From a virus (lineage: Duplodnaviria > Heunggongvirae > Uroviricota > Caudoviricetes): a stretch of DNA of 8,860 nt. Positions within the stretch are counted from its first letter, which is position 1. Every line of letters begins with the position of its first letter. The stretch lies in the IMG/VR virus record IMGVR_UViG_2698536312_000010; one strand, written 5' to 3'. The position numbers and the translations under genes were made by a program. Shown piece after piece: positions 2,370-8,036 of this stretch. The notes below the pieces were generated by a model. It had not been told where the DNA came from, ran no database searches, and was given only the letters and a program-made list of their open reading frames with translations.

Positions 2370-3428
2370 ATGCTTAATACTGTAAAAATATCCAGTTGTG
2401 AGTTAATCAACGCCGACTGCCTGGAATTTATCCGGTCGTTACCCGAAAATTCTGTTGACCTGATAGTCACGGACCCGCCGTACTTTAAAGTGAAGCCTGA
2501 GGGCTGGGATAACCAGTGGAAGGGCGACGATGATTACCTGAAGTGGCTGGACCAGTGTCTGGCGCAGTTCTGGCGGGTGCTGAAACCTGCCGGAAGTCTT
2601 TACCTGTTCTGTGGTCATCGCCTGGCATCTGATATCGAAATCATGATGCGTGAACGCTTCAGTGTGCTGAACCATATTATCTGGGCGAAGCCGTCCGGAC
2701 GCTGGAACGGATGCAACAAGGAAAGCCTGCGGGCGTATTTCCCCGCCACAGAGCGCATTCTGTTCGCGGAACATTATCAGGGGCCGTATCGTCCGAAAGA
2801 TGCCGGGTATGCGGCGAAGGGCAGTGCACTGAAACAGCATGTGATGGCCCCGCTGATTTCTTACTTTCGTGATGCGCGAGCTGCCCTGGGGATAACGGCA
2901 AAACAGATTGCAGATGCCACAGGAAAGAAAAACATGGTGTCGCACTGGTTCAGTGCCGGTCAGTGGCAGTTGCCGAATGAAAGCGATTATCTGAAATTAC
3001 AGGCGCTGTTTGCCCGGGTGGCAGAAGAGAAGCATCGGCGTGGTGAACTGGAAAAGCTCCACCACCAGCTGGTGGATACGTATACCTCACTGAACCGGCA
3101 GTATGCGGAGCTGCTGAGTGAATATAAACATCTGCGGCGGTATTTTGGCGTGACGGTGCAGGTGCCGTATACCGATGTGTGGACGCATAAACCGGTGCAG
3201 TTCTATCCCGGGAAACATCCGTGCGAAAAACCGGCAGAAATGCTGCAGCAGATAATCAGCGCTAGCAGTCGTCCGGGTGACCTGATTGCAGATTTTTTCA
3301 TGGGGTTGGGTTCGACAGTGAAAGCGGCACTGGCGCTCGGGCGTCGTGCAATTGGCGTTGAGCTGGAGACTGAACGTTTTGAGCAGACGGTTCGGGAAGT
3401 ACAGGATTTAGTCAGCCAGAACGGATGA
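2370..3428 (+). CDS. Beta-class DNA methyltransferase (N6-adenine or N4-cytosine), orphan
   Basis: 352 aa with DPPY (motif IV) near the N-terminus in VTDPPYF and an FxGxG AdoMet-binding motif (DFFMGLGST) near the C-terminus; this order is diagnostic of beta-class amino-methyltransferases. No restriction-enzyme partner in the window. Confidence 0.9.
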   Translation: MLNTVKISSCELINADCLEFIRSLPENSVDLIVTDPPYFKVKPEGWDNQWKGDDDYLKWLDQCLAQFWRVLKPAGSLYLFCGHRLASDIEIMMRERFSVLNHIIWAKPSGRWNGCNKESLRAYFPATERILFAEHYQGPYRPKDAGYAAKGSALKQHVMAPLISYFRDARAALGITAKQIADATGKKNMVSHWFSAGQWQLPNESDYLKLQALFARVAEEKHRRGELEKLHHQLVDTYTSLNRQYAELLSEYKHLRRYFGVTVQVPYTDVWTHKPVQFYPGKHPCEKPAEMLQQIISASSRPGDLIADFFMGLGSTVKAALALGRRAIGVELETERFEQTVREVQDLVSQNG

Positions 3429-3468
3429 TATTGAAGAATTAATTACGCGTCGTTATTATGCGGCTCCC

Positions 3469-3544
3469 GGCCCTTTAGCTCAGTGGTGAGAGCGAGCGAC
3501 TCATAATCGCCAGGTCGCTGGTTCAAATCCAGCAAGGGCCACCA
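3469..3544 (+). tRNA. ileZ: tRNA with CAU anticodon, Ile2 (lysidine) type; encoded 3' CCA present
   Basis: Manual cloverleaf: acceptor GGCCCTT/AAGGGCC, D-stem GCTC/GAGC, anticodon loop CTCATAA (CAT at 3502-3504), T-arm GCTGG-TTCAAAT-CCAGC, discriminator A, CCA at 3542-3544. Close to E. coli tRNA-Ile2 as I recall it. The symbol follows Stx-phage nomenclature and is not verified by search. Confidence 0.88.
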
Positions 3545-3644
3545 TCACAAACCGCCATTAGCTTATCAGGAAGAGCAGACGACACGATAACAGGGTTGTT
3601 GGTGCGGGGGCGGGTCCCCGATGGCGGTCCATTATCGGTATTCA

Positions 3645-3721
3645 GCGTTGTTAGCTCAGCCGGACAGAGCAATTGCCTTCTAAGCAATCGGTCACTGGTT
3701 CGAATCCAGTACAGCGCGCCA
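3645..3721 (+). tRNA. argO: tRNA-Arg (anticodon UCU, reads AGA/AGG); encoded 3' CCA present
   Basis: Manual cloverleaf: acceptor GCGTTGT/ACAGCGC with one G-U pair, D-stem GCTC/GAGC, anticodon stem ATTGC/GCAAT, loop CTTCTAA (TCT at 3679-3681), T-arm ACTGG-TTCGAAT-CCAGT, CCA at 3719-3721. The symbol is a guess from 933W-type naming (argN/argO). Confidence 0.88.
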
Positions 3722-3831
3722 TATTCATTCTTCCAGATTCCTTCCGGCAGAGCCTTATACTGAAATATACCTGGCTCAGGATATTGTTGAAAATATTTTA
3801 TGTTTGTCAAAAATAAAAGTTCTGTTAAGTA

Positions 3832-4185
3832 TTGATTGAGTGTTTGTTATACGGTCTAATGGTTTTTTCAGCATTAAATATTTATCATTCATATGGTGTG
3901 GGTAGAGTGAATATTGATGAGGCGTCGGGGTGTTTCATCCTTAGGCAGCGTATTGATATAGTCAATGCAGCACGAGCAAAGGCCTTCAGCCGTTTGACAG
4001 TTTTGTTCTGTACTCCTGATCGTCTTTCGGGAAGAGACGTTATTATTCTGAATAGTGATGCTATACAGAGGGTTTGCGATGAGTTCATGGTTGCTAATTC
4101 AGAATTATTTGCTCTTGTTCAGGAGTACAACAGAATAGCCAGGACCTGTGGTATGGATGAACTTCGGATTACTCATCTGGGGTAG
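3832..4185 (+). CDS. Hypothetical ORF (117 aa from TTG; 108 aa from first ATG at 3859) immediately after the tRNAs
   Basis: Open frame only; no convincing Shine-Dalgarno for either start and no recognisable motif. An antisense ORF (3885-4088) overlaps it. Position corresponds to where stxA begins in Stx phages, but the product does not resemble StxA. Confidence 0.3.
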   Translation: MIECLLYGLMVFSALNIYHSYGVGRVNIDEASGCFILRQRIDIVNAARAKAFSRLTVLFCTPDRLSGRDVIILNSDAIQRVCDEFMVANSELFALVQEYNRIARTCGMDELRITHLG

Positions 4186-4389
4186 ATACATATCTGGATT
4201 ATCACCTGTTACGGTAAAAAGTGATTGCTTACTGTTTTTGTGAATGGCATTGCAGCAGCCGGATAATGTCAGTGCTGGCTGACGGTGTGCTGGTGGCGGG
4301 TGTGGTGGTTGTTGCTTTCCCGTTGCTGAAAAAGAAAACGCCAGACTGTTAGCCGGGTATCAGTTAGCGGGAGAAATTTTTAAATACTT

Positions 4390-4611
4390 CACAATTCAGG
4401 CGGTTGACTGTTGTCTGGTTTGCGGGGAGTTTGTTAAAAGAAACTGGCATGGTGAATCCCCCTGTGCGGAGGGGCAATCAGCGAGTAGGTATATGGGATA
4501 ATCGCGGATTCAGGTGCTGGTACTGAATTCACCGGGAGGCACCCGGCACCATGCAATGGCACATAGCGCCACTCTCCAGCCCCTCTCCGGAGGGGCTGTT
4601 TATATTGATTT
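4390..4611 (+). repeat. Repeat family copy 1: candidate small-RNA gene with 5' hairpin and intrinsic terminator
   Basis: The stretch from GTTTGTTAAAAG (4429) to the terminator is near-identical to copy 2 and shares conserved blocks with copy 3. 5' hairpin CCCCT-GTGCGG-AGGGG at 4458-4473. Terminator stem AGCCCCTC (4577-4584), loop TCCG, stem GAGGGGCT (4589-4596), then GTTTATATTGATTTT. Confidence 0.8.
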
Positions 4612-4632
4612 TGTCAGATGTGAGTAAACTCC

Positions 4633-4968
4633 TTATGGACTTTGTTGTTTTAGTCCATAAGGACATATTTGCAGAGTGCAACGGTTATTAAAGCATTCAT
4701 TCAATACGTTATCTGTATTTGTAGGGCATTCCTGGCTGTTTTTGATTAAATTCCAGAATGTTTTATTGAATGGTACTACGTTGTAAATGGTTACAGGTAG
4801 CACTTTGTTATTGAGCATGATGCCTGTGTGAGTCAGTGTAAATATACTTTCAGGAGGTAAGAAAGCATCCGATTGATACCAGATTATTAATTTTATTTTA
4901 CTCCATATGACTGAAAAAGATATTCCGCATGATGGCTGGATAACTGTATCAATCACAATCCACTTCAT
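4633..4968 (-). CDS. Hypothetical cysteine-rich protein (111 aa) in AT-rich DNA, opposite strand to the phage late genes
   Basis: Only long ORF in this interval. Good Shine-Dalgarno on the minus strand (AAGGA, 6-nt spacer, ATG at 4968-4966). AT-rich upstream region with a TATACT -10-like hexamer (plus coordinates 5009-5014). C-terminal cluster of four cysteines ([26 protein letters not shown]). A 10-bp perfect stem-loop (4631-4662) spans the stop codon. No family recognised. Confidence 0.45.
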
Positions 4969-5236
4969 TTAGTTTCCTTGTTTATGCCTTGCTGGTGATG
5001 TTCTGAAAAGTATAAATGATATTTTTGAATGTAAACCATAGAGCAGAATTATTTTTCTGATGTTGTTTATTGTTTATTTAAATGCAGGGTGGTTTATATC
5101 TCGTCTTGTAGTTTATCCATGCATATCTGCTTGATAATCAGGTTTTTATTTAAGGTATGGTTTTGTGTTTTTTCTGTATTACATGTCAGGTATTTTAAAG
5201 AATTATTTTTCAGATGGTGGAAAGAACCATGGCATT

Positions 5237-5248
5237 TNNNNNNNNNNN
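5237..5248. other. Scaffold gap (12 N) immediately 5' of repeat copy 2
   Basis: Literal N-run; the sequence after it begins exactly at a conserved repeat block. Confidence 1.
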
Positions 5249-5421
5249 GTTTGTTAAAAGAAACTGGCATGGTGAATCCCCCTGTGCGGAGGGGCAATCA
5301 GCGAGTAGGTATATGGGATAATCGCGGATTCAGGTGCTGGTACTGAATTCACCGGGAGGCACCCGGCATCATGCAATGGCACATAGCGCCACTCTCCAGC
5401 CCTCTCCGGAGGGGCTTTTCT
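5249..5421 (+). repeat. Repeat family copy 2 (5' end hidden by the gap); near-identical to copy 1
   Basis: 5249-5415 matches 4429-4596 with two differences (caccatg to catcatg, and one C missing in the terminator stem). Sequence downstream of the terminator is unrelated to that after copy 1. Confidence 0.8.
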
Positions 5422-5475
5422 GTGCCGGATACATCACAGTTTCTGGAACCTTAGGTACTACAGTATCAGTCAGGG

Positions 5476-5484
5476 TGCTATATT
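5476..5484 (+). promoter_or_regulatory. Candidate extended -10 promoter (TGcTATATT) for a short independent transcript ending at the 5610-5637 terminator
   Basis: TG at 5476-5477 and TATATT at 5479-5484; no clear -35. The terminator lies about 120-150 nt downstream. Confidence 0.35.
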
Positions 5485-5609
5485 TTCAGATGTGATGAAA
5501 GCCTGTCAGCAGGCAGGGCGTATCGGAAATGACCCAGTAGAGAAAACGTTGACTCAGATACCGGTGCTGAGTTACCGGGAAACCGGCATCACATGACCGC
5601 TATCCTTCC

Positions 5610-5637
5610 AGGCCCATCCGCTCCGGTGGGCCTTTTT
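5610..5637 (+). terminator. Intrinsic terminator (GC-rich hairpin plus T5)
   Basis: Stem GGCCCA (5611-5616), loop TCCGCTCCGG, stem TGGGCC (5627-5632), then TTTTT (5633-5637). Confidence 0.5.
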
Positions 5638-5676
5638 ACTGCAGAAAACAGGTTCCCCGTTAAATGCTATGTTGCT

Positions 5677-5908
5677 CACAATTCAGTAAGTTGACAGTTG
5701 CCTGTCAGACTGGGCATTTGTTAAAAAAATTTCGCATGGTGAATCCCCCTGAGCGGAGGGGCGACTGGTGACGGTATAATCTCTGATTATCAAAACGAGA
5801 ATGACGCGGGTTTAGTGGCACCGGGCTGAACTCACCGGGAGGCACCCGGCACCATGTGCATGATGATACAGATACGCGGCTTTAGCCCCTCTCCGGAGGG
5901 GTTTTCTT
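5677..5908 (+). repeat. Repeat family copy 3: diverged copy with the same conserved ends and a different core
   Basis: Shares CACAATTCAG, GTTGAC-GTTG-CTG, TTTGTTAAAA, GCATGGTGAATCCCCCTG-GCGGAGGGGC, TCACCGGGAGGCACCCGGCACCATG and the terminator hairpin (CCCCTC-TCCG-GAGGGG, 5886-5901, then TTTTCTT) with copy 1. The intervening core sequences are unrelated. Confidence 0.75.
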
Positions 5909-5913
5909 GTGGG

Positions 5914-5943
5914 CAAAAAAAGCCCGCGCTGGGAGACGCGGGC
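5914..5943 (-). terminator. Possible minus-strand intrinsic terminator facing the N gap
   Basis: Hairpin GCCCGCG-CTGGGAGA-CGCGGGC (5922-5943) preceded on the plus strand by A7 (5914-5920), which is a U-run on the minus-strand transcript. Confidence 0.35.
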
Positions 5944-5973
5944 GGCAAGGAATAAACAATAAAACGTGAAGTA

Positions 5974-6164
5974 NNNNNNNNNNNNNNNNNNNNNNNNNNN
6001 NNNNNNNNNNNNNNNNNNNNNNNNNNNNNNNNNNNNNNNNNNNNNNNNNNNNNNNNNNNNNNNNNNNNNNNNNNNNNNNNNNNNNNNNNNNNNNNNNNNN
6101 NNNNNNNNNNNNNNNNNNNNNNNNNNNNNNNNNNNNNNNNNNNNNNNNNNNNNNNNNNNNNNNN
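5974..6164. other. Scaffold gap (191 N) immediately upstream of the nanS-p start
   Basis: Literal N-run. Six-frame ORFs crossing it are artefacts. Confidence 1.
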
Positions 6165-6182
6165 TCCCGGCCGGGAGGATTC

Positions 6183-8036
6183 ATGGCATTTAAACACTAT
6201 GACGTGGTCAGGGCGGCATCGCCGTCAGACCTTGCGAAACGACTGACACAAAAACTGAAGGAGGGCTGGCAGCCGTTTGGTAGTCCGGTGGCCATAACCC
6301 CTTATACCCTGATGCAGGCGATTGCAGCAGAAGGTGATGTGGTCGTCAGTGGTGCAACTGAGCCGGAGTGGTACTACGTCATCGTACTGGCCGGGCAATC
6401 CAATGCCATGGCTTACGGTGAAGGTCTTCCGCTTCCGGATTCATACGATGCGCCCCATCCGCGCATTAAGCAACTGGCCCGTCGTAACACAGTGACTCCC
6501 GGTGGTGAAGTATGCGTATTTAACGACATCATTCCTGCTGACCATTGTCTGCATGATGTTCAGGATATGAGTACGATTAACCATCCCCGGGCTGACCTGA
6601 GCAAAGGGCAGTACGGCTGTGTCGGACAGGGCTTACATATTGCCAAAAAACTGCTTCCGTATATCCCTAATAATGCGGGGATCCTGCTGGTACCATGCTG
6701 TCGTGGTGGTTCGGCATTCACCCAGGGCACGGAGGGGACATTCAGCGAGTCCACGGGGGCCAGTCAGGATTCGGCTCGCTGGGGAGTGGGTAAGCCGTTA
6801 TATCAGGATCTGCTTTTCCGCACGAAGGCAGCATTGCAGAAAAACCCGAAAAACGTTTTGCTGGCGATATGCTGGATGCAGGGGGAATTCGATATGACGA
6901 ATGCCAGTTACGCCCAGCAGCCAGCAGCATTTCTTGCAATGGTACAGCAGTTCCGTGCTGACCTTGCCGGGCTGGCGGCGCAGTGTCACGGTGGAAGTCC
7001 GGCATCAGTCCCCTGGATTTGTGGCGACACGACATACGCGTGGAAACAAGAACACGGTACGCAATATGAAGTGGTATATGGTGCATATAAAGGTAAAGAA
7101 TCCCAGCAGATTTATTTTGTTCCCTTTATGACCGATGGTAGCGGAGTTAATACACCGACAAACAACCCGTCAGAAGATCCTGATATTGCCGGGTCTGGTT
7201 ATTACGGTTCGGCATCCCGAACGAACAAAAACTGGGTATCATCAAATCGCCCGACGCATTTCAGCTCATGGGCGCGTCGTGGCATTATTCCCGATCGTAT
7301 GGCAACTGCTATTCTGAACGTAGCCGGTCGCACCTTAGCCTTCATTAGTGGTAAGGCACCGGAAATCAAACCCTCGCCCGGCGGCGACACGCCATCGGGG
7401 CCGTCTGAAGATGCATCCATACGCACAATCTCCCTGTTGCCGACAGCCGGAGACGCTGCTGCGCAGGGCTGGAGCATTAAGAATGGCGGAGTTCAGTTGT
7501 CAGATGGTGTATTTAAGATCACCAAGCAGAGCAATAAAGCCTGGTCCCTGACGCGCCCGGTGGATGACGCAGTCTCCCTGCTGACACGGGGTGGCAGACT
7601 GAGCTGTAAGTTTCGACTGTCAGGCGCACTGACCACCAACCAGTTCGGTCTGGGAATTTATCTGTATACCGATGTAGCGTTACCTGACGTCGTGGCGATG
7701 ACCGGGACTGGTAACCCGTTCCTGATGTCGTTCTTCACCCAGACCACAGACGGCAAACTGAATCTGATGCATCACAAGAAAGCAGGAAACACAAAGTTGG
7801 GCGAGTTCGGGAATTACAGTAACGACTGGCTGACGCTGGAGCTGGTGTTCACCGCCGGCAGTGCCACGGTTACTCCGAAACTGAATGGAGTGGCTGGCCC
7901 GGCATTCCAGGTCATAAAAGACAGTCTGACACTGGGGCTGAATGCGCTGACGCTGACGGATATTACCAAAAATGCAGCGTATGGCGTTGAGATAGAAAGT
8001 CTGGTGCTGGAGATAAATGCACCGGCATCATCATAA
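6183..8036 (+). CDS. nanS-p: Prophage sialate O-acetylesterase, NanS-p type (DUF1737 N-terminus plus SASA/SGNH esterase domain)
   Basis: 617 aa. The N-terminus MAFKHYDVVRAASPSDLAKRLTQKLKEGWQPFGSP matches the DUF1737-type start and VLAGQSNAMAYG carries the GQSN catalytic-serine motif of SASA esterases, both from memory. GGGAGGA sits upstream of the ATG. Position between the toxin-cargo slot and holin S is the canonical one in 933W-like phages. In-frame upstream sequence is open into the gap, so the true start could lie within it. Confidence 0.88.
   Translation: MAFKHYDVVRAASPSDLAKRLTQKLKEGWQPFGSPVAITPYTLMQAIAAEGDVVVSGATEPEWYYVIVLAGQSNAMAYGEGLPLPDSYDAPHPRIKQLARRNTVTPGGEVCVFNDIIPADHCLHDVQDMSTINHPRADLSKGQYGCVGQGLHIAKKLLPYIPNNAGILLVPCCRGGSAFTQGTEGTFSESTGASQDSARWGVGKPLYQDLLFRTKAALQKNPKNVLLAICWMQGEFDMTNASYAQQPAAFLAMVQQFRADLAGLAAQCHGGSPASVPWICGDTTYAWKQEHGTQYEVVYGAYKGKESQQIYFVPFMTDGSGVNTPTNNPSEDPDIAGSGYYGSASRTNKNWVSSNRPTHFSSWARRGIIPDRMATAILNVAGRTLAFISGKAPEIKPSPGGDTPSGPSEDASIRTISLLPTAGDAAAQGWSIKNGGVQLSDGVFKITKQSNKAWSLTRPVDDAVSLLTRGGRLSCKFRLSGALTTNQFGLGIYLYTDVALPDVVAMTGTGNPFLMSFFTQTTDGKLNLMHHKKAGNTKLGEFGNYSNDWLTLELVFTAGSATVTPKLNGVAGPAFQVIKDSLTLGLNALTLTDITKNAAYGVEIESLVLEINAPASS

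Follow-up and report, generated by a model that had tools for sequence, protein, structure and literature searches.

STnc100-family small-RNA genes in a lambdoid late region: four tandemly oriented units with a covarying, pseudoknotted 5' domain

The STnc100 small-RNA gene family (Rfam RF02076) has been catalogued before in the late regions of enteric lambda-like prophages. One member, EcOnc27 (sRNA103), lies downstream of stx2B in EHEC and is transcribed and Hfq-associated (PMC7873438, PMC12711010); Northern blotting and Hfq-CRAC support it, and effects on fimZ and espA have been reported, their mechanism being unclear (PMC7873438). EDL933 carries 11 STnc100 copies, most of which are transcribed according to RNA-seq; six of the 11 have a ribosome coverage value >1, meaning more footprints than transcript reads, and its copy STnc100_4 is Northern-positive (PMC5331693). 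One EDL933 copy adjoins stx2, and variation in the stx2-adjacent copy has recently been tied to clinical outcome (PMC12711010). In LT2, the STnc100 promoters show RpoD ChIP-exo signal (PMC10794520). The literature contains no validated direct target for any STnc100 member.

The best experimental model is a diverged relative, PasD (PasD1/PasD2 in EPEC E2348/69; EcOnc13 in EHEC), for which a Northern blot, Hfq-dependent stability and RIL-seq targets are on record. In EPEC, PasD is abundant and Northern-confirmed, its Hfq-dependent stability was reported in a delta-hfq strain, and its RIL-seq chimeras form via the 3' part of the RNA; its seed, UGUGAG, is the only one mapped in a relative and lies in the 3' linker before the terminator (PMC8550237). 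The same prophage zone harbors AgvB (RF02702) and AsxR (RF02703), which are Hfq-associated and form convergent dyads with STnc100-type units; they lie on the opposite strand, measure 51–60 nt, and are variable at the 5' end but conserved at the 3' end (PMC4104026). Lambda 6S RNA and StxS are further short terminated late-region transcripts of lambdoid phages, running from PR' to tR'. They start at the late promoter beside Q and carry a qut site, and Q-modified polymerase has to transcribe past their terminators. StxS is an Hfq-binding sRNA (PMC7873438).

We analyzed a viral DNA stretch of 8,860 nt (IMG/VR record IMGVR_UViG_2698536312_000010), referred to here as the window. Its genes include RusA, Q, an N6/N4 methylase, tRNA-Ile2, tRNA-Arg, DUF3927, IraM, a SASA (NanS-p) esterase and a holin. 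A sequence-only reading had described three same-strand repeats, each with a 5' block, an internal block and a 3' hairpin plus U-tract, and had proposed a small-RNA family of lambdoid prophage late regions. The Rfam covariance-model scan that it suggested assigned all three copies to RF02076: copy 1 at 4418–4607 (132.4 bits), copy 2 at 5238–5427 (120 bits) and copy 3 at 5705–5914 (161 bits). The matches are full-length (model positions 1–206), with E-values from 1e-27 to 5e-37 and scores well above the curated gathering score of 47 bits. A repeat finder agreed, recovering the 5' and internal blocks in copies 1, 2 and 3 at essentially the coordinates given by that reading. Each unit ends in a terminator-like hairpin followed by a T tract, and a terminator scan found 11 such sites where 1.5 were expected. 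The STnc_100 qPCR primers of PMC12370729 match copy 1 exactly at 4449–4468 and 4521–4540. That the repeats are copies of the STnc100 gene family is, in our judgment, virtually certain; they are real and they are not new.

A diverged fourth unit, missed by the sequence-only reading, lies on the plus strand at 5466–5639. Its RF02076 score of 30.1 bits (E 4e-5) is below the gathering score, so we refer to it as STnc100-like. All units contain the consensus STnc100 helices, namely the closing helix, the CCCC/GGGG hairpin, P4, the CCGGG/CCCGG hairpin and the terminator. The window holds four tandemly oriented STnc100-family genes, three canonical and one diverged. They occupy the 'moron' zone between Q with the tRNAs and the esterase/lysis genes, and lambdoid late-region genes flank them on both sides.

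The canonical RNAs are predicted to start at the first base of helix P1, on the plus strand. For copy 1, the RNA spans 4447–4607 (Rfam, MFE fold and covariation), with P1 at 4447–4454/4547–4554, P2 at about 4458–4474, P4 at 4506–4513/4523–4530 and P5 at 4532–4546; a pseudoknot pairs 4477–4482 with 4516–4521, and the 3' part comprises a linker, which is a candidate seed, at 4555–4576 and a terminator at 4577–4598 with its U tract. Copy 2 (5249–5427, predicted RNA from about 5267) is 99% identical to copy 1 over 154 nt; it differs by one C>U change in P1, which gives a G-U wobble, and by a terminator stem 1 nt shorter. Copy 3 (5734–5914) has P1 at 5734–5741/5850–5857, P4 at 5808–5815/5826–5833, P5 at 5836–5850, a pseudoknot between 5765–5770 and 5819–5824, a linker at 5858–5883 and a terminator at 5884–5903 with its U tract. 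Unit 4 (annotated to 5641) has a predicted RNA from about 5489 with P1 GAUGUGAUG/CAUCACAU, P2 GCCUG/CAGGC, P4 GACUCAG/CUGAGU, P5 CCGG-GAAA-CCGG, a pseudoknot GUAUCGG/CCGGUGC and a terminator at 5610–5633.

The conserved structure was assessed across 62 distinct homologues, with the partner strands slid as a control. In the family structure, 85.4% of cells were paired versus 40–50% with slid partners; the covariation score was 0.256 versus at most 0.117, and 185 double-sided changes were observed versus 34–73. P1, P4 and the newly recognized loop pairing (the pseudoknot) all covary. The test of compensatory changes that the sequence-only reading had proposed supports a conserved RNA structure. 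Taken alone, the pseudoknot was 79% paired versus 11–46%, with a score of 0.498 versus at most 0.166. An alignment-free comparison gave a duplex energy of −10.1 kcal/mol for cognate strands versus −6.3 kcal/mol for non-cognate strands, and 0 of 10,000 permutations were as low. The pseudoknot is also kept, with other sequences, in unit 4 (duplex −8.8 kcal/mol), in PasD1/2 and in 933W EcOnc27, all of which lie outside the alignment.

Thermodynamic predictions gave the same architecture with one exception. The MFE fold of copy 1 yields P1, P2, P4, P5 and the terminator (z −3.08), leaving the linker mostly unpaired, and that of unit 4 reproduces the family architecture (z −2.72). For copy 3, the full-length MFE structure (−63.3 kcal/mol, z −1.03) differs from the family fold, which is predicted at −59.7 kcal/mol before −9.9 kcal/mol is added for the pseudoknot; the 5' domain folded alone adopts the family structure (−46.8 kcal/mol). 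The constrained fold with the pseudoknot and the isolated 5' domain are thus both consistent with the family fold.

These results refine several structural details proposed earlier. The CCCCT/AGGGG hairpin exists, and its four C-G pairs are invariant in the homologues; its U-A pair is not conserved, that A being A, U or C. GGTGAAT had been offered two alternative partners, ATTCA and ATTCACC. Both are present in the sequence, and covariation favors the pairing of GCAUGGUG (4447–4454) with CACCAUGC (4547–4554), that is, P1, while 4508–4512, the first of the proposed partners, belongs to P4. The core of copy 3 had been called unrelated to those of copies 1 and 2, which was an overstatement: alignment fails for no more than about 35 nt and a 16-nt insertion, and the remainder of the core is helix P4 and the pseudoknot strand, changed in a compensatory way. 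The variable core makes up the inside of a closed, pseudoknotted 5' domain in which the variable parts change together so that pairing is maintained.

Candidate promoters precede copies 1 and 3. The upstream region of copy 1 (4389–4446, plus strand; block TCACAATTCAG..GTTGACT) contains a candidate −35 TTGTCT at 4411–4416, a TG at 4432–4433 and a −10 T(T)AAAA(G) at 4434–4440, with a predicted start at G4447. That of copy 3 (5676–5733, plus strand; TCACAATTCAG..GTTGACA) contains TTGCCT at 5698–5703, TG at 5719–5720 and T(T)AAAAA at 5721–5727, with a predicted start at G5734, and its arrangement is identical in NU14 and in 933W before EcOnc27. The block of copy 1 recurs before copy 3 and before the NU14 homologue of copy 2, which has a full promoter; in the window, the promoter of copy 2 is lost in an 11-N gap. 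The upstream region of copy 1 aligns with the PasD promoter TTGACT-17-TTAAAA, and the mapped PasD 5' end, the G of GCAUGG, coincides with the predicted start of the units. In 84 of 164 distinct upstream regions, the −10 element keeps its place, at −17 to −14 with respect to GGTG. A generic sigma-70 promoter scan did not call the proposed unit promoters; the assignment is based on the alignment to PasD and on this positional conservation.

Among the described systems, STnc100/EcOnc27 shares with the window units the helices, the promoter block, the slot between tRNAs or stx and an esterase gene, and the dyad with a convergent short RNA. Identity to the 933W unit is only 66% for copy 3 and 56% for copy 1, and the differences extend to the insert, P4, pseudoknot, linker and terminator sequences; any targets would accordingly not be the same. 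The window contains no stx genes, unlike the EcOnc27 locus. PasD1/PasD2 have the same architecture, pseudoknot included, the same 5' start at GCAUGGUGAAUCC and the same slot after DUF3927 and before an esterase or holin. Their RF02076 scores (41.4 and 37.7 bits) lie below the gathering score, whereas copies 1–3 lie above it, and they have a P2 of CCUC-CUUG-GAGG, their own P5 region, a long U-rich linker with UGUGAG and their own terminator. We considered whether the window units are themselves PasD and rejected this, as the alignment shows another P2, P5 and linker and lacks the GGCUGCGCA terminator; they are canonical STnc100. In contrast to lambda 6S RNA and StxS, the units follow the methylase and tRNA genes, possess candidate promoters of their own and share no sequence with those RNAs.

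The sequence-only reading had suggested that the repeats may belong to the anti-sRNA or sponge class, in which a unit would sequester or destabilize a core-genome sRNA via its variable region, in the manner of AgvB on GcvB or AsxR on FnrS. The genomic zone and the Hfq-crosslinking screen are the same as those of the anti-sRNAs (PMC4104026), STnc100 units form dyads with anti-sRNAs, and pairing of the variable regions with sRNAs is possible in principle. Against this, the RF02702 and RF02703 models have no match in 3700–6200 at the gathering score or even at E<=1; the search works, since the AsxR model finds its 933W member at 88 bits. The units measure about 155–180 nt, their 5' end is the most conserved part and they have a structured 5' domain, unlike the 51–60 nt of AgvB and AsxR. 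Of the PasD RIL-seq entries examined, most are mRNAs or intergenic regions, and the literature reports sponge activity for no member of the STnc100 family. Nor is the notion of a swappable core as the targeting region supported, since the core lies inside a helix-closed, pseudoknotted domain and the PasD seed lies in the 3' linker. The units do not belong to the AgvB/AsxR class, and we regard a sponge function as quite improbable.

A convergent sRNA-like element, of which the 3' part lies on the minus strand at 5915–5973 (terminator 5943–5922, terminator scan), is the dyad partner of copy 3; its 5' part is masked by a 191-N gap. Its position matches that of AsxR in 933W, where AsxR is the convergent antisense neighbor of the STnc100 unit. 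The full sequence, taken from NU14, matched no Rfam family at threshold. AsxR, AgvB and Esr41 were each tried as its identity and rejected, the best match, OmrA-B, reaching 25 bits and so falling short of the cutoff of 40. The element is homologous to an EPEC RIL-seq sRNA candidate. It is a positional analogue only of AgvB/AsxR and matches neither family.

The units might instead be cis-acting elements of the late operon, with an aptamer-like, polymerase-binding or protein-binding domain controlling its own terminator as a riboswitch-like attenuator or an antitermination signal, or mainly stacked terminators insulating the lysis genes. The P1-closed, multi-helix, pseudoknotted domain with invariant junction nucleotides, followed by a terminator, would suit such a role, as would the position between the late promoter and the esterase/lysis genes. 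In copies 1–3, the 3' strand of P2 equals that of the terminator, making an antiterminator-like alternative possible, and terminator 5' strands pair with P2 at −9.7 kcal/mol versus −6.8 kcal/mol for shuffled strands. However, only 29 of 112 units show this identity of the P2 and terminator strands, without covariation with P2 variants, and terminators and linkers are freely swapped among cores. Candidate promoters of the units' own sit at a fixed distance; downstream of copy 1 comes the convergent gene iraM and downstream of copy 3 the convergent sRNA-like element, in neither case a regulated ORF; and homologues accumulate as discrete, Hfq-associated RNAs with trans partners. A cis-acting role appears improbable to us.

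Remnants of a degraded protein-coding gene, or mobile-element ends, were also weighed. In RefSeq, short pseudogenes labelled 'hypothetical protein, incomplete' overlap homologous units on the opposite strand. Against this, ribosome coverage was low in five of the 11 EDL933 copies (PMC5331693), unit lengths fall into all classes modulo 3 (64/61/40 among 165 distinct units), no frame is open in more than 70 of these 165, and the substitutions are compensatory for RNA helices. As for mobile-element ends, the units form direct repeats, a candidate promoter and a terminator-like hairpin framing each of them. We give this origin almost no credence.

The 5' cores and 3' tails reassort among homologues, as the idea of a modular family had anticipated: 30 core types and 46 tail types occur in 58 combinations, with four-gamete squares, and some homologues (e.g., L019 and L035) join an STnc100 5' domain to a PasD-like tail. 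A recognizable terminator lies within 110 nt in only about two thirds of homologue tails, and the U tracts are short or interrupted (UGUUUAUAUU, UUUUCUGUG, UUUUCUUGU), weaker than classical Hfq-binding terminators. The homologues are found in phage and prophage contigs and in >25 genera. Throughout these genera, about 35 nt in the 5' domain never change; GGUGAAUCCCCC..GGGGC and UCACCGGGAGGCACCCGGCACC are exact in >25 Enterobacterales genera, and the surrounding helices vary only in compensatory ways. This invariance exceeds the needs of a passive scaffold and hints at an unrecognized partner or function. It is conceivable, though unlikely, that the 5' domain is a recognition module for a conserved partner such as a protein, RNA polymerase or a small ligand.

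The arrangement of the units in the window calls for caution. N-runs of 4, 11 and 191 bases interrupt the stretch, and copy 2 starts exactly at the 11-N run (5238–5248); the bases ahead of this run (ATGGCATTT from 5230) form the beginning of a nanS-p/DUF1737 gene, as at 6183. Positions 3400–6000 are contiguous in none of 5,426 complete E. coli genomes. Because of this gap, the nanS-p start and the genome count, the adjacency of copies 1 and 2 is probably a scaffold join; of the three-copy array proposed earlier, copies 2 and 3 stand together and the junction with copy 1 was found in 0 of the 5,426 genomes. We consider it likely that the three-copy array is an assembly artefact, with contigs of two or more prophages chained by the scaffolder: the contig ahead of copy 2 breaks off after 9 nt of nanS-p, and a 190-nt duplication (92% identical) within Q flanks the 4-N run and makes Q exactly 194 nt longer than in relatives. 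Even so, 353 complete genomes carry 5249–5973 (copy 2, unit 4 and copy 3) as one contiguous stretch at 99.7%, units often occur elsewhere as tandem pairs or triplets (14 of 116 viral loci, and also phage vB_EcoS-640R1), and the N-runs could be deliberate masking instead of gaps. An artefact would touch adjacency only, leaving the identity of the units aside, and would agree with the explanation below.

With moderate confidence, we favor the reading that the units are independent sRNA genes acting in trans through Hfq. Each unit would be transcribed separately from its sigma-70 promoter and would end at an intrinsic terminator of its own, the resulting RNA measuring about 155–180 nt. The first roughly 110 nt would form a compact domain in which P1 closes around the hairpins P2, P4 and P5 and the pseudoknot pairs the P4 loop with the 6–7 nt that follow P2; beyond this domain would come a linker, variable and single-stranded, and then the terminator hairpin. 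Discrete transcripts, which the sequence-only reading had predicted, are borne out for homologues only (Northern blots of EcOnc27, PasD and STnc100_4), and the Hfq association is likewise borne out for EcOnc27 and PasD only (Hfq-CRAC; RIL-seq). By analogy with PasD, EcOnc27/sRNA103 and EcOnc13, we infer that the RNAs bind Hfq and base-pair in trans with host and prophage mRNAs via the variable 3' linker, and possibly also via the variable insert. Because their linkers are unlike those of PasD and EcOnc27, we can name no target. The 5' domains may be reassorted with the 3' seed/terminator modules through recombination at the invariant blocks. In the lysogen, the four terminators would presumably also keep transcription from running on into the lysis genes before Q acts.

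For the window, the practical outcome is a correct label together with the caution that part of the array is probably a product of scaffolding. STnc100-type RNAs rank among the most abundant small RNAs that prophages contribute to pathogenic E. coli, and the pseudoknot, the conservation of about 35 nt and the 5'/3' reassortment provide concrete experimental handles, suggesting the likely place of the seed and mutations with which the fold could be tested. If the 5' domain does prove to be a recognition module, STnc100/PasD RNAs would combine a constant effector-binding domain with exchangeable guide/terminator modules, or would represent a cis-acting regulator of late transcription.

Three repeat units lie on one strand between 4390 and 5910, and all carry the blocks named in the sequence-only reading. 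A repeat finder recovered two blocks common to copies 1–3, the 5' block of 87 nt and the internal block of 31 nt. Over 154 nt, copies 1 and 2 share 99% identity, and the three-way alignment contains the invariant segments GCATGGTGAATCCCCCTG.GCGGAGGGGC and TCACCGGGAGGCACCCGGCA.CATG. Every unit is closed by a terminator-like hairpin and a T tract; 11 such sites were found in 4300–5973, in comparison with 1.5 expected. An Rfam scan, which that reading had proposed, returned full-length matches to STnc100 (RF02076; gathering score = 47) for copy 1 (4418–4607, 132.4 bits), copy 2 (5238–5427, 120 bits), and copy 3 (5705–5914, 161 bits). The repeat and these matches are far above chance. The three-copy, same-strand repeat with shared blocks is confirmed by the repeat finder, the alignment, and the Rfam matches; the observation is real, but the adjacency of the copies, the number of units, and the nature of the "core" need correction.

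The element is already known, as the curated Rfam family STnc100, as the EHEC copy EcOnc27/sRNA103, and within the PasD superfamily, and hundreds of sequenced genomes hold identical or near-identical copies. In EDL933, 11 STnc100 copies are annotated and most are transcribed, with a ribosome coverage value above 1 in six of the 11 and Northern blot confirmation of one (PMC5331693). The stx2-adjacent copy is the Hfq-crosslinked sRNA EcOnc27, alias sRNA103, whose overexpression increases the fimZ and espA transcripts (PMC7873438, PMC12711010). STnc_100 was detected in STEC outer-membrane vesicles, and the published qPCR primers match copies 1 and 2 exactly (PMC12370729). RpoD ChIP-exo signal is present at STnc100 promoters in Salmonella LT2 (PMC10794520). 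A 2026 preprint concluded that STnc100 and the EPEC sRNAs PasD1 and PasD2 share a common ancestor (doi 10.64898/2026.05.13.724894). Against the STnc100 model, PasD1 (37.7 bits) and PasD2 (41.4 bits) score just under the threshold, and they resemble STnc100 in occupying the same slot, 3' of DUF3927 and ahead of the esterase or holin. PasD is abundant and Northern-confirmed, has reported Hfq-dependent stability, and forms RIL-seq chimeras with many mRNAs via a UGUGAG seed (PMC8550237). The earlier proposal of a prophage sRNA family with Hfq-associated members stands. Its tentative assignment to the sponge or anti-sRNA class does not: the units fail the membership tests for the short anti-sRNAs AgvB and AsxR, and we found no positive evidence for such a role.

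Homologues were collected by a pattern on the two invariant blocks (120 viral and 92 genome loci), and 64 non-redundant units from these loci plus window copies 1 and 3 were aligned. The structure tested comprises helices P1, P2, P4, and P5 of the 5' domain, which P1 closes, and a pseudoknot; partners slid by 1–3 columns served as the control. In the specified structure, 85.4% of cells hold standard pairs (slid partners, 40–50%), the covariation score is 0.256 (at most 0.117), and 185 cells are changed on both sides (34–73). All outer four pairs of P1 and six of the eight pairs of P4 covary. P2 and P5 are invariant in the aligned set, partly because the units were collected by the invariant-block pattern, and they change in a compensatory way in PasD and in unit 4, a diverged unit between copies 2 and 3.

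We detected a new pairing between the 6–7 nt directly 3' of P2 and the P4 loop, which crosses P4 and therefore constitutes a pseudoknot. The 5' and P4-loop strands are AUCAGC/GCUGGU in copies 1 and 2, CUGGUG/CACCGG in copy 3, and CCAGUC/GACUGG, GCUAGG/UCUAGC, AAUGAC/GUCAUU, or GAUACC/GGUAUC in other homologues, with double-sided changes at all six pairs. For the pseudoknot alone, 79% of cells are paired (slid controls, 11–46%), and the covariation score is 0.498 (at most 0.166). In an alignment-free test, the cognate duplex had −10.1 kcal/mol versus −6.3 for non-cognate strands, and a value this low was reached in 0 of 10,000 permutations. The pairing is also kept outside the alignment, in unit 4 (GUAUCGG/CCGGUGC), PasD1 and PasD2 (AAUGAUC/GAUCAUU), and 933W EcOnc27 (CUGGUG/UACCAG). 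The 2026 preprint (doi 10.64898/2026.05.13.724894) does not mention a pseudoknot.

The minimum-energy fold of copy 1 is the family fold (z = −3.08). The full-length MFE structure of copy 3 differs from it (z = −1.03); its 5' domain folded alone adopts the family structure, and the family fold imposed as a constraint (−59.7 kcal/mol) and the pseudoknot (−9.9 kcal/mol) are together more stable than the MFE (−63.3 kcal/mol). The "spacer" between copies 2 and 3 is a diverged STnc100-family member (5466–5639; 30.1 bits, below the gathering score; E = 4e-5 locally). This unit 4 (window 5466–5641) has a different sequence, in which compensatory changes preserve every helix and the pseudoknot: P1, GAUGUGAUG/CAUCACAU; P2, GCCUG/CAGGC; P4, GACUCAG/CUGAGU; P5, CCGG-GAAA-CCGG; and its own terminator at 5610–5633. 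Its minimum-energy fold is the family architecture (z = −2.72). Separately, the 3' strands of P2 (CGGAGGGGC) and of the unit's own terminator have the same sequence (4458–4474 versus 4577–4598; likewise in copies 2 and 3), which makes P2 a possible alternative partner for the terminator 5' strand. The identity occurs in only 29 of the 112 homologues with a recognisable terminator, without covariation.

The 5' and internal blocks of the sequence-only reading are two strands plus the inner hairpins of one closed domain. The "swappable core" is no free targeting segment; most of it is P4 and the pseudoknot strand, changing only in compensatory fashion, and the unconstrained part between the two blocks is an insert of only 10–45 nt. 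A second variable region, the linker from P1 to the terminator, occupies 4555–4576 in copy 1 and 5858–5883 in copy 3, and the PasD seed sits in the equivalent linker. Specificity probably resides elsewhere than originally placed. Across homologues, 30 core types (5'-domain variants) and 46 tail types (linker-terminator variants) occur in 58 combinations, with nine cores joined to several tails, nine tails to several cores, and four-gamete squares present. The copy 3 core is found with the copy 1 tail, and STnc100 cores with PasD-like tails. These combinations indicate that the family is modular, as had been suggested, but not as conserved ends around a swappable core: the modules are the 5' domain and the 3' linker plus terminator, with the junction at an invariant block.

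The window contains N-runs of 4, 11, and 191 bases. The 4-N run (1096–1099) lies inside the Q antiterminator gene (782–1797), flanked by 190-nt segments (906–1095 and 1100–1289) that are 92% identical, and this Q exceeds the 822-nt Q of close relatives by exactly 194 nt. The partial duplication looks like unmerged contig ends of two Q alleles, suggesting a chimeric scaffold. Copy 2 starts at the first base after the 11-N run. The run is preceded by nine bases (ATGGCATTT, from 5230) that form the start-codon region of a nanS-p/DUF1737 gene and recur at the opening of the intact esterase gene at 6183. The region 3400–6000 was found as one piece in none of 5,426 complete E. coli genomes, versus 353 complete genomes holding 5249–5973 (copy 2, spacer, copy 3) contiguously at 99.7% identity. 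UPEC NU14 has the order Q, methylase, three tRNAs, copy 2, copy 3, DUF1737 remnant, and holin; relatives of the left contig have copy 1, iraM, and nanS-p. Based on the N-runs, the nanS-p start before the gap, and the genome counts, the copy 2–copy 3 pair is real, and the copy 1–copy 2 adjacency probably arose when a scaffolder joined two prophages. Elsewhere, pairs and triplets in tandem are common (14 of 116 viral loci), and two units precede iraM in phage vB_EcoS-640R1.

The flanking genes are RusA, Q, an N6/N4 DNA methylase, tRNA-Ile2(CAT), tRNA-Arg(UCU), DUF3927, IraM (minus strand), NanS-p (sialate O-acetylesterase), a P21-type holin, and YdfR. This location is the late-region "moron" zone of lambdoid prophages, and Stx phages carry stx in the same slot. 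Phage 933W has an STnc100 unit (208 bits) that begins 75 nt 3' of stx2B and is directly abutted by the convergent anti-sRNA AsxR (88 bits). According to reviews, at least eight Sakai prophages contain "dyads" made up of a longer sense sRNA plus a convergent anti-sRNA; these include EcOnc27 with AsxR and EcOnc06 with AgvB. Adjoining copy 3, a convergent sRNA-like element (5915–5973, minus strand; terminator 5943–5922; 5' part masked by the 191-N run) is a positional analogue of AsxR/AgvB in the published dyads. It is complete in homologue locus L003 (6168–6256, minus), is homologous to the EPEC RIL-seq candidate E2348C_1409.E2348C_1408.IGR, and matched no Rfam family at threshold.

Four further features of the window were observed. 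Between copy 1 and the start of the esterase gene, an IraM homologue (4633–4968, minus strand) forms a moron in reverse orientation; it matched nothing in Pfam, and RefSeq relatives annotate it as IraM, an anti-adapter and RpoS stabiliser. About 83 nt 3' of the stop codon of Q, a strong terminator-like hairpin with a T tract (1880–1904) is a candidate for tR' in the late promoter region; in related phages, this region gives rise to short transcripts of the StxS or 6S type. ARAGORN assigned 3469–3544 as tRNA-Met (CAT); the identical gene is annotated in RefSeq relatives as a tRNA-Ile of the ileZ type, which reads AUA after lysidine modification, as in phage 933W. Between tRNA-Arg and DUF3927, a 117-aa ORF that starts with TTG (3832–4185) lacks any Pfam match, is unannotated in close RefSeq relatives, and is probably not a gene.

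In a genome scan (loci L127–L206), exact copies of the two invariant blocks (12–14 nt) occurred in more than 25 genera of Enterobacterales, some of them in Erwiniaceae and Yersiniaceae (the genera include Escherichia, Shigella, Salmonella, Klebsiella, Enterobacter, Citrobacter, Kosakonia, Leclercia, Pantoea, Erwinia, and Rahnella). Some units are plasmid-borne; the Pantoea plasmid pAPP145_2 (L136/L142/L150) carries at least five. A degraded protein-coding gene was rejected as an explanation, as no conserved reading frame was found among 165 units, any one frame is open in at most 70 of them, and unit lengths fall in all classes modulo 3 (64/61/40).

As mapped by RNA-seq, PasD begins at the G of GCAUGG, downstream of TTGACT-17-TTAAAA. 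In the window units, the sequences aligned with this promoter are TTGTCT or TTGCCT, a 17–18-nt spacer, and TG-n-TAAAA(G/A); the starts predicted from them, 4447 and 5734, are each the first base of P1. Among 164 distinct upstream regions, 84 have their best −10 match beginning −17 to −14 from GGTG; a generic promoter scan did not call the window unit promoters. An alternative is cis-regulation, in which the aptamer-like domain controls its own terminator or the units are stacked terminators that act as insulators. This alternative draws its appeal from the architecture and the extreme conservation, but each unit has its own predicted promoter, convergent neighbours follow copies 1 and 3, terminators are freely swapped, and the P2/terminator strand identity is limited to a subset without covariation, leaving it a minority possibility.

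The best-supported interpretation is that the units are independent sRNA genes. Their transcripts would consist of a stable pseudoknotted 5' domain, a variable linker, and a terminator, and would work in trans together with Hfq, as has been shown for PasD and is indicated for EcOnc27. For the window variants, whose U tracts are short, we infer expression, Hfq binding, and targets. The remaining interest lies in the function of the family, together with the covariation-supported pseudoknot and the invariant core documented in this analysis.
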